A stretch of 64,000 nucleotides of DNA, taken from NCBI GenBank assembly GCA_963820825.1, contig CAWGBN010000003.1:1-64000 (forward strand), in the 5' to 3' direction. Below are positions 17,301 through 23,300 of this stretch, piece after piece. The first letter of the stretch is position 1; each line of letters begins with the position of its first letter. The DNA is from Vulcanimicrobiota bacterium (GTDB taxonomy: Bacteria; Vulcanimicrobiota; Vulcanimicrobiia; Vulcanimicrobiales; Vulcanimicrobiaceae). Position numbers: made by a program.

Positions 17301-20300
17301 CGAAGGGTTAGAACTCTTCTTCTTGGCTGGCGTTCTCGGAGAAGGGCGCCTCTTCGTCCTCGCCTTCGTACGCCGGTTTGTCATCCTCGTAGGTCGATTC
17401 TTCGTCCTCTTCCTCGAGTTCGTAGCCCTGCGGTCCCTCGATCTCTTCTTCGGCGGGCTCTTCCTCTTCGAAGATCTCTTCCGGTTCGATCTCCGTCGCA
17501 CGCGGCGCGACCGGAGGAGGCGTGACGACGGCAGTCGCGTCGAGCGGTTTGCTGTCGTCGATCTCTTCCTCTTCCTCCTCTTCCTCGGGGCTCGCTTCGG
17601 CTTCGGTAGCGGCTTCACGAGTCGCCACCACAGTCTGCGATACCGCAGTCTGCTCGTCGCCCATGAGCAGCCCGTACTCGCGCCGTTCCGATTCGGCCAT
17701 ATCGTCTTCGGGCGTCTTGATCTCGACCTCTTCGCGGTTCTCGGTGAGCACCTTGACGTCGAGCGCGAGCGACTGCAGCTCTTTGATCAAGACCTTGAAC
17801 GATTCCGGAACGCCCGGCTCCATCACGTTCTCGCCCTTGACGATCGCTTCGTAGGTCTTGACGCGTCCGACGACGTCATCGGATTTCACCGTCAACAGCT
17901 CCTGCAGGGTATAGGCGGCGCCGTACGCTTCGAGCGCCCAGACCTCCATCTCGCCGAAGCGCTGTCCGCCGAACTGCGCCTTTCCGCCGAGCGGCTGTTG
18001 CGTGATCATCGAGTATGGCCCGGTCGACCGCGCGTGGATCTTGTCGTCGACGAGATGCGCGAGCTTGAGCATGTAGATCATGCCGACGGTGATCGGACGG
18101 GAGAAGCGTTCGCCGCTTCGCCCGTCGCGCAGCCAAGTTTTGCCGTCGGCCGGAAGGCCGGCGTCTTGAAGCCACTCCGCGAGATCCTCGGCATGCGCGC
18201 CGTCGAAGACCGGCGTCGCCACGCTCATGCCGAGCATGCGCGCGGCCCAGCCGAGATGCGTCTCCATGATCTGCCCCAGATTCATGCGCGACGGCACGCC
18301 GAGCGGATTGAGCACGATGTCGACGGGCGTCCCATCCTCGAGGTATGGCATGTCTTCTTCCGGGAGCACCTTTGCGATGACGCCTTTATTGCCGTGGCGT
18401 CCCGCCATCTTGTCACCCTGCAGAATCTTGCGCTTCTGTGCGACGTACACGCGAACGAGATGATTCACACCGGGAGAGAGCTCGTCGCCGTTCTCGCGCG
18501 AGAAGACCTTGACGTCGATGATCTTGCCCTTCTCGCCGTGCGGCACTTTGAGGCTGGTGTCGCGGACTTCGCGCGACTTCTCACCAAAGATCGCTCGAAG
18601 CAGCCGCTCCTCGGCCGTCAGCTCGGTCTCGCCCTTCGGCGTAACCTTGCCGACGAGAATATCTTCGGGGCGGACCTCCGCGCCGATGCGAATGATGCCG
18701 CGCTCGTCGAGATCCTTGAGTGCATCTTCGCCGACGTTGGGAATGTCGCGGGTGATCTCTTCGGGCCCGAGTTTGGTATCGCGTGCCTCGCACTCGTACT
18801 CTTCGATATGAATCGAGGTAAAGCGATCCTCTTTGACCATGCGCTCGCTGATCAGAATGGCGTCTTCGTAGTTGTATCCTTCCCACGGCATGAAGGCGAC
18901 GAGCACGTTCTGCCCGAGCGCGAGCTCGCCCTGATCCGACGAAGGACCGTCGACGATGACTTGTCCTGCGACGATCTCGTCGCCGACGCCGACGATCGGG
19001 CGCTGGTTGATACACGTACCCGCGTTGCTGCGCACGAACTTGAGCAGCTCGTAGGTCCGTTCGATTCCTTCGTGGTTGCGAACGACGATGCCCTTGGCGT
19101 CGACGGCGGTGACCGACCCGGCCTCTTCGGCGACGATCAAGCTGCCCGAGTCCTTGGCCGCGCGATACTCCATGCCGGTGCCGACGATCGGCGCGGAGGG
19201 ACGGAGCAGCGGAACGGCCTGGCGCTGCATGTTTGCGCCCATCAGCGCGCGGTTTGCGTCGTCGTGCTCGAGGAAGGGGATGAGCGCCGTCGCGACCGAG
19301 ACGATCTGCTTGGGCGAGACGTCCATCAACTGGACCCGCGCCGCCGGCTCTTCGATATACTCTTCGGCGTAGCGCGAGACGACCGAGTCGGTCGTGATCC
19401 GCCCCGATTCCGAATCGACCGGCGTATTCGCCTGGGCGATGATGTACTCGTCCTCTTTATCCGCAGTGAGATACTTGATCTCGTCGGAGACGATGCTCTC
19501 GCGAACCACCCTATAAGGCGTCTCGATAAAGCCGAACTTGTTCACTCGCGCGTAGGTCGCGAGCGAGCCGATCAGACCGATGTTTGGACCCTCAGGCGTC
19601 TCGATCGGGCAGATCCGTCCGTAGTGCGAGTGGTGGACGTCGCGAACTTCGAAGCCCGCACGCTCGCGCGAGAGACCACCCGGACCGAGCGCCGAGAGAC
19701 GCCGCTTGTGGGTGAGCTCGGCGAGCGAGTTCGTCTGGTCCATGAACTGCGAGAGCTGCGAGGAGCCGAAGAACTCCTTGATCGCGGCGACGACCGGGCG
19801 AATGTTGATCAGCGCCTGCGGCGTGACCGTCTCGATGTCTTGCACCGTCATGCGCTCGCGCACGACGCGCTCGAGGCGGAGCAAACCGACGCGGAACTGA
19901 TTCTGCAGCAGCTCGCCGACCGAGCGGACGCGGCGGTTGCCGAGATGATCGATGTCGTCCTTAGCCACCATGCCGACCGCGACGCGGATCAAGCGCCGGA
20001 TCACGGCGATCATATCCTCGCGCAAGAGGCAACGGGCACCGTCGCCGATGGTGTCGCCCTTCTTGACGCTCTGTCCCCGAACGATCCCCGGCGCGACGCG
20101 CGGGCGCACGCCGAGAACCTTGCGAATGCCCAAATCCGCATAGAGATCGTAGGTGACGGTCTCGCCGTCTTTGTAGCGGATCGTGACGAGGCATTCCGAC
20201 GCCTCGGGGCGCTCCTTGTCGAAGACGTCGGAGATTTCGAGAACCTCGCCGTCCTCTCGCGCGGTAACGATCGCTTTAGGCTCGGTCAGTCCGGCATCGG

Positions 20301-23300
20301 CGTATTCGTTGATCGCGAGATGCGGTTGCTCCAAGCGCTGCTCGGGGTCGGGGTTCTGGATGCGATACTGGAACTTACTGCTGAGCTTGTAACGGCCGAC
20401 GCCGGCGAGATCGTAACGCTTATCGTCGAAGAAGAGCGACTCGATCAGTTTTTCGGCGTTCTCCGCGTTCTCCGGCTCGCCCGGACGCAACTTCTTATAA
20501 ATTTCCTTGAGCGCGTCTTCGCGCGTCTTGATGTCCCGGTCTTTCTCGATCGAGTTTCGAATGATCGCCTGCCCCTGCGCAGGAAGATCGGAGAAGAGCG
20601 CCACGATCGCGTCGTCGCTCTCCCAGTCGTAGCCCAGCGCCGGGCGCGTGAGCGCGCGAATGAAGGTCGAGACGTAGATCTTTCGGTTCTTGTCGATGCG
20701 GACACCGATGGTGCCCTCGGTCTCGTCGTTCTTCGTGCCGTTGTCGGTCTCGAACTCGATCCACGCACCGCGATTGGGAATGATCGTGGCGTTGTACGTG
20801 GGACGCGCGTTGGTATCGACGTCTTGGCTGTAGTAGACGCCGGGGGAGCGCACGAGCTGGCTGACGATGACCCGCTCGGCGCCGTTGATCATGAACGTGC
20901 CTTTGTCGGTCATGAGCGGGAAGTCGCCCATGAAGATTTCCTGGTCGGGGATGCCTTTGATTTCGCCCGACTCCGCGGTAATCAAACGGACGCGAACGCG
21001 CAGCGGGGCGCTGTACGTCATGTCGCGCTCGCGGCACTCCTCGATGGAATACTTCGGCTCGCCCAGCGAATGCTCGCCGAACTCCAGGATCAAGTTTCCG
21101 GTAAAATCTTTGATCGGCGAGATCGAGGCAAAGGCCTCCGCAAGACCTTCGGTCTTGAACCAGTCGAAGCTGGCCTTCTGCAACTCGATGAGGTTGGGAA
21201 CCTCGAGAACGTGCGGGATCTTCGCGAACGAGTAACGCTCGCGCTTGGGACCCGGCTCGGGCCGCTGCTCGACGGTAAACGCGCCCGTCGGCATCGGGAA
21301 GGTCGAGGGCATGACGGTCGAAGCGCCGTTTCCATCGCTCACCTTCAGGGACGCGACGGAGGGACGCTTCGTTCTTCCTTTATTAGCCCTCGGCGAGCTC
21401 GGGACAGTCTCCGGTGAATTTTTTGTGGTGGACTTCGGAGCTGTCGTCTTCGCCATTAACTCTCTCTCTCTGCTGATGCTCTGCTAATGAATCTGTATCG
21501 ATGATGACATGCTTTTTGGGCACACCAAAAAGACGAAACACGGGCTCCACAGATGGAGGTGTCTCGCCCTTCTCTTTGCGGCGGCTTTCATGCGCCCCGG
21601 GGCATGGCCACGAGTTTAGCACCCGTCGCCATGGGCGTCAAGGAACCCTGCTTGGCCGGTAGTGGGTCAGTATTAAGGTTGCGACTTAGACGGCAGCCCT
21701 GGATTAAGGCTAGTGGGCCCGTTTGGCCGAGCGAGCCCGAAACCAGAAAGACTGACGAGCCGTAAGTAGGTAAGCCGAAACGGAGGACCCTTAATGAGCT
21801 TGCCGACTGCGATCGTCGTGGCAACTGGAATGATTTGTGGCACCGTTCTGGTGCTATTCCTGATTTCTGTACTCTGGATGGTTCGACGCCACTAGGCCCC
21901 ATCGCGCATTTCGCGATCGTGAAAGGCTTGGGGTATGCCTAAACGCTCAAGGAAAGCTCCAGGCGACTACGACGCGAACGCGGCCCGCATAGTTGCGATC
22001 GCCACCGGCTAAGAACCTCTCAACGGCAAGCCGCGCCCAAACCCTAAACCGGAACCCAAGAAGAACCCCCATGCGGTCGCGCTCGGACGGCGCGGCGGTA
22101 AGGTTGGCGGCAAGGCGCGGGCCAAGGCGCGGACGGCAGAGGAGCGCCATTCTATCGCGGTCAAGGCTGCGAGGGCGCGGTGGGGCATGGCCGAGGATGA
22201 ATGAGCGACAGCGGTTAGCGGTTGTACCGAAACCAACCCAACCTGACGCGGTCATTTACAGCGACCCAAATAAAATCCCGATCGTTATCGATCAAGAGCC
22301 TCACGATCGGTGAAACTGGCCTGCTTGACCGCCACGGTGGCCGAAAAAAGTCAAGGGCTCGGCTCGCTAGGTGCGCCGCCTCCGGCCGTCGCACGGGCTG
22401 GGAGGAGGTGCCTCATGTCCGAGAGCCGCTCGCTTCGCCGTTTCCTCGCCGGGCCGATCTGCGCCGGGCTCGCGCTTAGCGCGGCCGGCGGCTGTGCCGC
22501 CGCGCCGCCGGCACCTGCTAACGGCCTCGCCGCCGCGGCCGCGCGGATGAACGCGGCGGGATGCGGCAAGTCGCTCGTCTACGTGACCTCGTACGGCAAC
22601 TCAGTCTACATCTACGACCAGGCGCGAAATGAGAAGACGCCGTGCGGTCAGATCACCGGGGTCGTCAATCCCCAGGGCCTCTTTGTCGACAAGCATCGGA
22701 ACCTGTGGGTTGCCGTAAGCGGCGATTGTAAGACGCAGTTCTCCAGCGTGCTCGAGTTCGCGCCCGGCAATCCCACGCCGGTCAAAACGCTGCAAGACCC
22801 AGCCGGTTCGGCTTCAGACGTAGCGGTCGACAACGCGTCGGGAACGGTCTACGTGACGAACTTCTTCAACTACACGCGCGGCTGCATTAGTGGAAACAAT
22901 GGCGGCGTCGAAGTCTACGCGAACGGCAGCACCTCACCAACCTCGACGCTGAGCGATCCGAAGATGAACTACGCCTTCGACGACGCGGTCGATAACCACG
23001 GCAACCTCTACGTTACCTATCTCGAAGTCAACGGACCCTCGGGAAGCGGACGGATCGACGAATGGATGGGCGCAACGGGCTCGCCGGCCGATCTCGGCAT
23101 CGCGCTCGAAGCGCCGGGCGGAATTCAAACGACCGCGAACGGCGCGCTGCTCGTCTGCGATCAATCCGTTGCCTGCGGCGACTTCGCTCCCGGCTCGAAG
23201 ACGATGACGAACCTCTTCGCAACGAAGCATCCGGGCTCGTTCGGCGTCGCGCTCGACAAGGGCGAGAACCGCGTCTGGGTCGAGAATCCGGGTTTGAGCG

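Follow-up and report, generated by a model that had tools for sequence, protein, structure and literature searches.

Separation of rpoB from rpoC in the Vulcanimicrobiaceae and a start signature shared by the two genes

Introduction

rpoB and rpoC stand next to each other in nearly all bacteria, an arrangement usually explained by the need for equal amounts of the beta and beta-prime subunits of RNA polymerase and for their joint assembly. The locus considered here raises the question of how these two genes can come apart, and by what means their output might then be matched. Excerpts of one account describe the production of both subunits from a single transcript in many bacteria, with an attenuator ahead of rpoB in E. 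coli and two promoters in mycobacteria (PMC6181997).

In the genome studied (G000), assigned to the family Vulcanimicrobiaceae, rpoB lies in a window of 64,000 nucleotides at the start of contig C3. The nearest named RpoB records are 82–88% identical and are labelled Baltobacteraceae, Eremiobacteraeota or Vulcanimicrobiota; the NCBI taxonomy lists the family Vulcanimicrobiaceae, with Baltobacter among its genera. The family lives in soil and comprises 78 or more genera. A survey of the whole genome had proposed that rpoB and rpoC stand apart as single genes, and that the break-up of the entire ribosomal and polymerase gene cluster arose after the family separated from its sister families.

The rpoB locus of G000

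The first part of that proposal is borne out: rpoB is a single gene (Table 1), and rpoC lies on another contig (C7:41507-45298, minus strand). The start of RpoB matches the MAK start conserved among relatives, and no rplL precedes the gene. Hairpins comparable to the one that follows its stop codon are found 3' of rpoB in most family loci. The convergent gene at the usual place of rpoC gave no Pfam match for its product, and the 3-hydroxyisobutyrate-dehydrogenase-like gene beyond it is a remnant of a block inserted between rpoB and rpoC. The DUF5069-like gene is assigned through its homologue in G006 (73% identical), which matches this Pfam family; the Pfam search of the G000 protein itself returned no match.

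Table 1. Features of the rpoB locus in the window (positions within the 64,000 nucleotides)
Feature	Position	Strand	Remarks
DUF5069-like gene, same inserted block as the next feature	14675..15118	-	in the rpoB-rpoC gap of 7/20 relatives
3-hydroxyisobutyrate-dehydrogenase-like gene	15134..16024	-	in the rpoB-rpoC gap of 11/20 relatives read
Convergent gene, product probably secreted, at the usual place of rpoC	16647..17204	+	same position in G209
Terminator-like hairpin directly 3' of the rpoB stop, facing the convergent gene	17230..17252	-	
Complete monocistronic rpoB gene for the 1382-aa beta subunit of RNA polymerase	17308..21456	-	TIGR02013, 1748 bits
Acidic C-terminal tail of RpoB, 144 aa, 40% Asp/Glu	17311..17742	-	
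Candidate attenuator of the rpoB leader, a terminator-like hairpin with U-rich tract	21522..21585	-	-23.7 kcal/mol
Start signature and predicted leaderless five-codon ORF (M-P-R-G-A-stop), putative transcription start	21588..21605	-	
-10 hexamer TAAACT of the predicted rpoB promoter, TG ahead	21613..21618	-	
-35 hexamer TTGACG of the predicted rpoB promoter	21636..21641	-	
Divergent gene upstream of rpoB, weak NHL-repeat match	22415..23428	+	
dxs, next after the divergent gene	23425-25302	-	

The acidic tail of RpoB was considered as a possible result of the split and rejected as such, since it is also long where the operon is unsplit: past the PES motif it measures 180 residues in the sister-family genome G159 and 125–127 in the next family, against 52–71 in other classes. 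Because the sister-family tail is equally long, the tail is older than the split.

Extent of the separation

Among the 59 family genomes that carry both genes on one contig, rpoB and rpoC are separated in 57. The old order is kept in 46 of the 59, with the genes 0.7–72 kb apart; in 11 they are inverted relative to each other and 340–530 kb apart, and eight congeners of G000 with both genes on one contig have the same inverted separation (340–440 kb). The term "unlinked", as used in the survey, therefore fits 11 of the 59 genomes, whereas most retain order and strand with genes inserted between. The gaps are graded in size, from one gene (G053 and G103) up to 72 kb, and their content is largely lineage-specific: 125 gap genes from 20 genomes fell into 68 clusters, 54 of which occur in a single genome only. 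In the remaining two genomes, G010 and G051, the genes are still adjacent and the rpoC promoter is already present within a spacer of 194–211 nt (G051 is an unpublished genome, and in G010 the scaffold with the pair is a chimera to the left of an N). These counts exclude G056, whose contig ends 34 nt before rpoC, G095, which has no sequence before rpoB, and genomes with the two genes on different contigs or without a match; the family tree used is a quick tree.

The canonical bicistronic arrangement, with rpoC directly 3' of rpoB on the same strand and neither terminator nor promoter between them, is absent from G000 and the 57 genomes: a hairpin follows rpoB, and the signature described below precedes rpoC. 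Nor was a fused RpoBC of the Helicobacter/Wolbachia type, with one reading frame for both subunits, found; the apparent candidates in G053 and G103 (open frames of 2836 and 2818 aa) were discarded, as the frames contain stops and an intervening chagasin-like gene.

Outside the family, the operon is intact in G159, the one genome that represents the sister family in our samples, and in 22/22 next-family genomes with both genes on one contig, as opposed to an own rpoC promoter in 60/60 family genomes. Within the class, the break between rpoB and rpoC is thus a family trait, as the survey had it. Beyond the phylum, the genes are adjacent in 63 of 64 informative loci. The survey's reservation that splits may exist elsewhere was justified: five genomes of the family f17, which belongs to another class, carry an independent one; of the 20 outgroup loci read, that of G164 is split. 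The upstream regions of rpoB and rpoC in f17 show no resemblance to each other, so promoter copying is not necessary for a split.

A start signature before rpoB and rpoC

The predicted rpoB promoter is the sole promoter-like site between positions 16400 and 22500; because shuffled sequences already yield 1.0 such site, its support comes from conservation. Eight bases past the -10 box stands the signature CCT-RTG-CCC, which is found at a predicted sigma-70 promoter before rpoC in 58 of 60 family genomes and before rpoB in 43 of 45. It also precedes the rpoB of G047, a row left out of the comparison. The other two rpoC genes have variants of the promoter, recognized by eye, which brings the total to 60/60.

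The signature was not found at rplC, rpsK or tuf, and a matrix derived from rpoB promoters scored 12 or more in 53/60 upstream regions of rpoC, compared with 0/30 of rplC, 0/30 of rpsK and 0/22 of tuf. Across 17 family genomes the exact pattern occurs 42 times, with 31 of these matches at promoters of rpoB or rpoC; a wider role before other transcription genes was dismissed, as the eight further matches that were read sat within or beside unrelated genes. When G000 was scanned with the matrix, the top matches were not ahead of polymerase genes; the rpoC site ranked fifth of 21,770 candidates, and the rpoB site, a variant, fell outside the top eight. In the sister-family genome and in 12/12 next-family genomes with upstream sequence, the signature precedes rpoB but not rpoC. 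The shared block is short, with about nine strongly conserved bases and up to 18 similar ones, and the leaders of rpoB and rpoC within a genome are slightly more alike than shuffled pairs (0.585 vs 0.554, p 0.027, for kin that are not independent).

Leader elements

A stop at codon 6 of the putative ORF occurs in 25/39 family rpoB leaders and in 16/26 rpoC leaders that lack the new RNA described below, and all three stop codons are in use. Among 43 rpoB leaders, ORF and hairpin are both present in 27 and both absent in 12, with one alone in 4. As in leader-peptide attenuators, a short ORF and a terminator-like hairpin with a U-tract are thus conserved together; a run of regulatory codons is missing, codon 5 being variable and codon 3 taking seven residues. 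In clade-A-type genomes, the rpoC leaders match those of rpoB in signature, ORF length, Pro-x-Gly pattern and hairpin with U-tract.

A new structured RNA is found in 33 of 60 rpoC leaders. Its 33 sequences support 15 pairs, with 97% of cells paired and two-sided changes in four pairs, a level of pairing reached in 0/500 shuffles; conserved pairing is accompanied by compensatory changes, although the support is moderate because the structure was derived from the same sequences and most pairs are invariant. A scan of G000 gave a single significant match, before rpoC, so that in this genome the RNA has one gene context. Only 3/32 anchored rpoC leaders that carry the new RNA also have the short ORF, and 3/39 genomes have the ORF at neither gene; identical control of rpoB and rpoC therefore cannot be universal.

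At rplC and rpsK, as at rpoC, the break comes with a promoter and a leader that are conserved throughout the family. The window had no Rfam match, Rfam searches of 12 rpoC leader loci and of the rplC and rpsK leaders returned only sub-threshold, unrelated matches, and the Rhodo-rpoB and Lacto-rpoB models had no match. The leader RNAs before rpoC, rplC and rpsK are candidates for new regulatory families.

Other junctions of the cluster

In G000, 29 of 36 junctions of the ribosomal and polymerase cluster are intact and seven are broken. The interruptions reported by the survey are there (rpsJ is separated from rplC by eight genes, rpsM from rpsK by four, and a single gene parts fusA from tuf); rplA|rplJ is broken as well, which is ordinary because this junction is variably broken in other classes too. 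The breaks date to different depths, contrary to the proposal that the whole cluster came apart after the family separated: rplL|rpoB is broken throughout the phylum and rpoC|rpsL throughout the class at least, the breaks of rpsJ|rplC and rpsM|rpsK lie at order level, that of rpoB|rpoC is of family level and fusA|tuf is confined to a subclade.

rplJL does stand apart from rpoB, on C5, but this is no family trait, since rplJL directly precedes rpoB in 0/20 outgroup loci read and lies 108–138 kb from it in three next-family genomes; the rplL|rpoB break predates the family by far. Nor are the breaks in the S10 and alpha operons specific to the family, since G159, from the sister family, already has 2.6 kb with three genes between rpsJ and rplC, and 619 nt with a separate promoter between rpsM and rpsK. 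The acyl-CoA dehydrogenase said always to lie in the rpsJ-rplC gap is there in 17/19 family genomes and absent from that of G159.

Although rpoB and rpsL (C1) are on different contigs, they are probably not far apart. The congener G209, assembled as a single contig, has the homologue of the first C3 gene next to those of the last C1 genes, and in 7/7 congeners rpoB and rpsJ share a strand, with rpoB 24–29 kb upstream; C3 most likely joins C1, which would put rpoB about 22 kb from rpsL. It is rpoC, not rpoB, that moved away.

Inserted genes between fusA and tuf occur in only 2/19 other family genomes read, so the interruption is not family-wide. An own promoter precedes tuf in 6/22 genomes read, only two of which have inserted genes, and the rplC leader motif stands before tuf in five of these six, also in G000 (leaders were read directly, as a phylum-wide mismatch search was too noisy to count). 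The case of tuf is a younger parallel to that of rpoC.

Origin of the split

We consider it fairly probable that the operon died through the copying of a promoter and leader, followed by gap filling and inversions, with twin promoters balancing the subunits. In the family ancestor, a separate sigma-70 promoter with leader would have come to stand before rpoC, most likely copied from the rpoB cassette of promoter, CCT-RTG-CCC signature, five-codon leaderless ORF and terminator-like hairpin, which would have made co-transcription dispensable. rpoB would then have acquired its terminator, lineage-specific and unrelated genes would have piled up between the two, and inversions in at least three genera would have shifted one gene by 340–530 kb. 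Equal synthesis of beta and beta-prime would be kept by twin promoters answering one signal instead of by one mRNA. One copy of the short ORF and hairpin would later have decayed in many lineages, and rpoC of one large clade would have gained the new structured RNA. A bolder version, which we put forward tentatively and regard as doubtful, holds that in both copies of the cassette a ribosome on the first codon translates the five codons and thereby decides read-through of the terminator, and that leader copying is a repeated route of operon break-up (rpoB to rpoC, rplC to tuf).

Another reading, with a real chance of being right if somewhat short of an even one, accepts the promoter copy but takes the "short ORF" for no more than the stem and loop of a 5' hairpin and the purine-TG for a transcription-start motif, so that control would act through initiation or RNA structure and involve no ribosome. 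The silent positions of codons 2–4 vary little, a short hairpin can form in the region, and in the next family the leader of rpoB combines signature and terminator while lacking the five-codon ORF, all of which suit it; the use of all three stop codons at codon 6 and the joint loss of ORF and terminator argue for translation, as do the moved stops, which are in frame in 12 cases and out of frame in 7 where one third would be expected in frame (p 0.007, kin not being independent).

It is unlikely that the rpoC promoter arose independently and was selected to resemble that of rpoB, with one factor or a property of RNA polymerase reading the start sequence and co-regulation being real but copying absent. 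The shortness of the shared block speaks for such convergence, and a looser form (-10 box, 5–9 bases, RTGC), which some loci of Bacillota, Fusobacteria and Obscuribacterales have ahead of rpoB, suggests a functional element that selection may be able to rebuild; the clade-A-type rpoC leaders, however, share more with rpoB than the signature, and no convergence on the rpoB promoter accompanied the split in f17.

We regard as very unlikely a neutral, genome-wide decay of operons in a slow-growing lineage, in which the likeness of the promoters is incidental and excess subunit is degraded, although the broken junctions of G000 would fit it, as would a doubling time of 17–21 h given for a cultured family member in an excerpt of PMC9758169. 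In four single-contig genomes the cluster is also remote from dnaA, at 81–90% of the distance to the opposite pole. A terminus search in 10 genomes with a dif-like pattern yielded no convincing site. Against such decay stand the larger number of intact junctions, the conserved promoter and leader at each of the rpoC, rplC and rpsK breaks, and three intact control operons (atp, dnaA-dnaN-recF-gyrB and rpmH-yidC-mnmE), which leave genome-wide decay unsupported. An assembly or binning artefact, suggested by the 85% completeness and nine contigs of G000 and by the chimeric scaffold of its relative G010, is hardly conceivable, as each of the two G000 genes is internal to a long contig and flanked by unrelated genes, and the single-contig genomes G004, G006, G009, G015, G024, G043, G059, G075, G086, G108 and G209 are split with intact flanks.

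Comparison with known systems

The following comparisons draw on excerpts of the cited papers. Canonical rpoBC loci (rplKAJL-rpoBC of E. coli and mycobacterial rpoB-rpoC) share with the family the same two genes and a regulatory leader before rpoB; in the family, by contrast, the genes form separate units, rpoB being followed by a terminator and rpoC preceded by a matching second promoter, and each gene showed a single promoter, not a tandem pair. The Rhodo-rpoB and Lacto-rpoB motifs are likewise lineage-specific structured RNAs before an RNA polymerase gene (PMC5737381), but the new RNA precedes rpoC and not rpoB, whose family leader consists of short ORF and terminator. The attenuators of ilvB1, whiB7 and the mycobacterial leaderless polycysteine ORFs also place a short ORF before a hairpin with U-tract (PMC13236596), whereas the family ORF has five codons and no regulatory-codon run, and its candidate attenuator precedes an RNA polymerase gene. 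Multigene insertions have been described in cluster separation (PMC6735719), there between operons, while the family breaks lie inside operons (rpoB|rpoC, rpsJ|rplC, rpsM|rpsK, fusA|tuf). Conserved structured leaders before rpsK-rpsD-rpoA-rplQ and rplC recall the S4, L4 and S10 r-leaders, the operons being among those listed for S4 and L4 (PMC7247131); those of the family are candidate regulatory leaders that have no Rfam match and sit at new break points. Our literature search found no report of the family split or its leaders, and a mention in a supplement or older paper may exist.

Significance

What is new here is a predicted sigma-70 promoter of rpoC's own with an rpoB-like start signature. 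A family without rpoB-rpoC adjacency that preserves every stage, from an internal promoter to genes half a megabase apart, opens the equal-amount explanation to testing, all the more as one member is in culture (PMC9758169). The twin signature suggests that RNA polymerase genes have a control element yet to be described, and a matching promoter and tiny leader at both genes may be how the cell keeps the subunit amounts equal. If ribosomes do decide terminator read-through in both leaders, each subunit would respond on its own to the availability of free ribosomes, replacing the role that co-transcription with rplJL has in E. coli.

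Extent of the rpoB/rpoC Separation

In the genome under study, rpoB lies in the window and rpoC on another contig (C7), as the survey had found. Across a sample of 121 Vulcanimicrobiaceae genomes, both genes were sought together in one profile search, using a fused Helicobacter protein as the profile. Among the matches listed, both genes were placed on one contig in 59 genomes, 57 of which are split: 46 (including the unpublished G109) keep order and strand at distances of 0.7–72 kb, and 11 carry the genes on opposite strands 340–530 kb apart (eight from the same genus as the studied genome, two from genus g5, and one from g14), while the genes are adjacent in two (G010 and the unpublished G051). 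Intervening genes were read directly in 21 of the 46 and deduced from a spacing of at least 4 kb in the remainder. The G010 scaffold is chimeric (L351, G010:C32:1–20000), with an rpoB end and an rpoC promoter, both from another lineage, between two N gaps.

G159, the sole representative of the sister family in the sample, retains the operon. So do all 22 next-family genomes that have both genes on one contig (two of them unpublished; spacer 13–92 nt in the ten read) and 35 of 40 genomes examined from other classes. Outside the phylum, the genes adjoin at 63 of 64 informative loci; at the lone exception (L125), a Bacillota assembly carries an extra rpoB-like region lacking rpoC, and in its other copy (L119) the two genes adjoin as usual. 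We regard the gene order as established. Genome G139 carries, besides a normal rpoBC on C31, an RpoB at C14:29623–33837 (2627 bits on the Helicobacter profile) on a contig that is probably foreign.

Beyond the hairpin that follows rpoB in the studied genome lies a convergent gene, and upstream are a divergent gene and dxs. RpoB there has a basic N-terminal extension of 70 aa; its tail past the PES motif measures about 60 residues in other classes, 126 in the next family, and 166–201 in this order. Elsewhere in the window, GC drops at 29464–31403, with a transposase-like ORF (30978–31403) judged by eye.

Coordinates of features in the genome under study (loci of relatives where given)
Feature	Position	Strand
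rpoB, complete RpoB, 1382 aa	window 17308–21456	-
Acidic C-terminal tail of RpoB, 144 aa	window 17311–17742	-
Terminator-like hairpin 3' of rpoB	window 17252–17230	-
Predicted short ORF of rpoB leader	window 21605–21588	-
rpoB leader hairpin	window ~21585–21522	-
rpoC, RpoC	C7:41507–45298	
New RNA in rpoC leader	C7:45359–45418	
rplC leader motif, also before tuf in a subclade	C1:63523, C1:71085; L219–L247	

A Promoter Signature Common to rpoB and rpoC

A sigma-70-like promoter with a start signature (CCT/TCT-RTG-CCC, eight bases downstream of the -10 box) precedes rpoC in every family genome read (58 of 60 by a strict anchor, two variants by eye). The same signature lies ahead of rpoB in 43 of the 45 regions tested, four outgroups among them (G047 was added afterwards; G095 has no sequence before rpoB), and in nine of nine additional next-family genomes; it is absent from the outgroup rpoC regions read. 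When a matrix was derived from rpoB promoters, 53 of 60 rpoC regions passed it, versus none of 82 rplC, rpsK, and tuf regions. The exact pattern gave 42 matches in 17 family genomes, 31 of them at rpoB or rpoC promoters, and the 11 others are background, since a reversed control pattern gave 28 in total. Counting on the other side, when sites across the studied genome alone are ranked by the matrix, that of rpoC comes fifth, and that of rpoB is a variant. That the signature is common to both genes is well supported, and the rpoC promoter and leader are probably a copy of those of rpoB.

In both adjacent-pair genomes, G010 and G051, the promoter lies inside the spacer (194 and 211 nt) and is thus independent of gene insertion. 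In a quick RpoB tree, the family forms a single clade (SH-aLRT 92) with G159 as sister; promoter-bearing genomes occur in both main branches, between which the inserted genes differ. Operons are known to be lost after an internal promoter is gained.

All five other-class exceptions belong to family f17 (genera g101 and g103; G164, G157, G167, G163, and G153; L404–L410, L040), and their split is an independent event, because four f17 genomes of g102 keep the genes adjacent. In the split f17 genomes, a hairpin terminates rpoB, and rpoC, on a separate contig, is preceded by unrelated genes and by a conserved motif of its own, which showed no resemblance to the f17 rpoB promoter when the two were compared. 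Thus, the separation is not unique, and copying is one route among others.

Inferred Rearrangement History

In relatives such as G054, a dehydrogenase, a DUF5069-like, and an F420-oxidoreductase-like gene lie between rpoB and rpoC; in the studied genome, the first two now follow rpoB and the third precedes rpoC. As the genes now flanking the pair fill the relatives' gap, insertion appears to have preceded rearrangement in this genus. There, rpoC seems to be the gene that moved away, because rpoB keeps its distance upstream of rpsJ (24–29 kb in seven congeners) and the counterparts of the ends of C3 (the window's contig) and C1 adjoin in G209. In G004 (g5), rplJ, rpoC, and rpsJ are still collinear, and rpoB, not rpoC, would have departed. 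The rpoB/rpoC midpoint is no more than 25 kb from the position opposite dnaA in G004 and G086 and is 190 kb off in G209; nested inversions around the terminus would fit the first two. A search with a dif-like pattern found no convincing terminus site in 10 genomes.

Other Breaks in the Ancient Cluster

Mapping E. coli proteins onto the studied genome located rplJL on C5 and the rpsL–rplQ stretch on C1, with seven of 36 scorable junctions broken (rplA-rplJ, rplL-rpoB, rpoB-rpoC, rpoC-rpsL, fusA-tuf, rpsJ-rplC, and rpsM-rpsK); the control clusters atp, dnaA-gyrB, and rpmH-mnmE are unbroken. The dnaA-gyrB cluster lies about 20 kb from rpmH-mnmE-rsmG on one strand, not back to back (C6:187000–219400). 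The genes rplA and rplJ are 6 kb apart (C5:212600–218800), a junction whose state varies in other classes too; rplJ has its own promoter and an upstream region that we take to resemble an L10 leader. In G024, G006, G009, and G059, the polymerase/ribosomal-protein cluster sits at 81–90% of the distance from dnaA to the opposite pole, away from the presumed origin.

The survey correctly counted eight genes between rpsJ and rplC, one between fusA and tuf, and four between rpsM and rpsK. Its dating of the break-up to after the sister-family split holds for rpoB-rpoC, intact in G159, but not for rpsJ-rplC or rpsM-rpsK. The former is broken in G159 as well as in every family genome with both genes on one contig (41 of 41; 44 searched) and is unbroken in five genomes that are more distantly related. 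The rpsM-rpsK gap measures 619 nt in G159 and 32–45 nt in two outgroups; of 27 family genomes, three have 312–735 nt and 24 have more than 1.4 kb. The acyl-CoA dehydrogenase said always to occupy the rpsJ-rplC gap is present in 17 of 19; a 141-aa SRPBCC-like protein is the most frequent occupant (18 of 19, plus G159). The rplC gene and the rest of S10-spc-alpha are displaced by about 300 kb from rpsJ in G053 and G030 and lie on a different contig in G014 and G010.

All 28 members of the order that were read conserve the rplC leader motif (promoter pattern in 27), a candidate L4-type leader; a conserved, possibly pseudoknotted rpsK leader about 100 nt upstream, a candidate S4-type leader, occurs in 18 of 28 (L248–L277) and is absent from this genus. 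Neither matched Rfam. An own tuf promoter occurs in six of 22 genomes read, with fusA within 211 nt in four and insertions in two. The rplC motif precedes tuf in five of these six and in the studied genome, where one 14-mer is confined to the regions upstream of tuf and rplC. At a younger node, tuf repeats the order of promoter and borrowed leader, then insertion.

Leader Elements and a Proposed Mechanism

In 25 of the 39 rpoB leaders from the family, the sixth codon counted from the RTG is a stop (TAG 12, TAA 10, TGA 3), predicting the peptide M-P-x-G/A-x. Displaced stops were in frame in 12 cases versus 7 out of frame, above expectation, with significance overstated because kin are not independent. 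A 4–7-codon ORF and a U-tract hairpin occur together in 27 rpoB leaders, singly in four, and not at all in 12, and 36 of 39 genomes having both rpoB and rpoC leaders carry the short ORF in at least one. Next-family rpoB leaders have signature and hairpin without the five-codon ORF; the G159 leader ORF has four codons.

A distinct conserved RNA lies in 33 of 60 rpoC leaders, including that of the studied genome, where it occurs once. It folds into a hairpin enclosed by a long interrupted stem (97% paired, two-sided changes at four pairs), and the rpoC leader search against Rfam gave no match. Codon-6 stops occur in 16 of 26 rpoC leaders without this RNA versus 3 of 32 with it; four genomes (G005, G016, G081, and G087) combine short ORF and RNA, which reads as an intermediate state.

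For comparison, we drew on parts of sources on the rpoBC operon and rpoB RNA motifs (PMC6181997, PMC5737381), multigene insertions and ribosomal-protein leaders (PMC6735719, PMC7247131), and a cultured family member (PMC9758169). Lineage-specific rpoB leaders (excerpts of PMC5737381) and short-ORF attenuators (excerpts of PMC13236596) are known kinds. A literature search, with supplements outside its scope, returned no family-wide rpoB/rpoC split and no matching promoter-leader on both genes. Judging from sequence, the mechanism we prefer, at roughly an even chance, is ribosome-coupled attenuation: a ribosome loaded in leaderless fashion onto the opening codons would hinder the terminator, and abundant free ribosomes would then bring more read-through.
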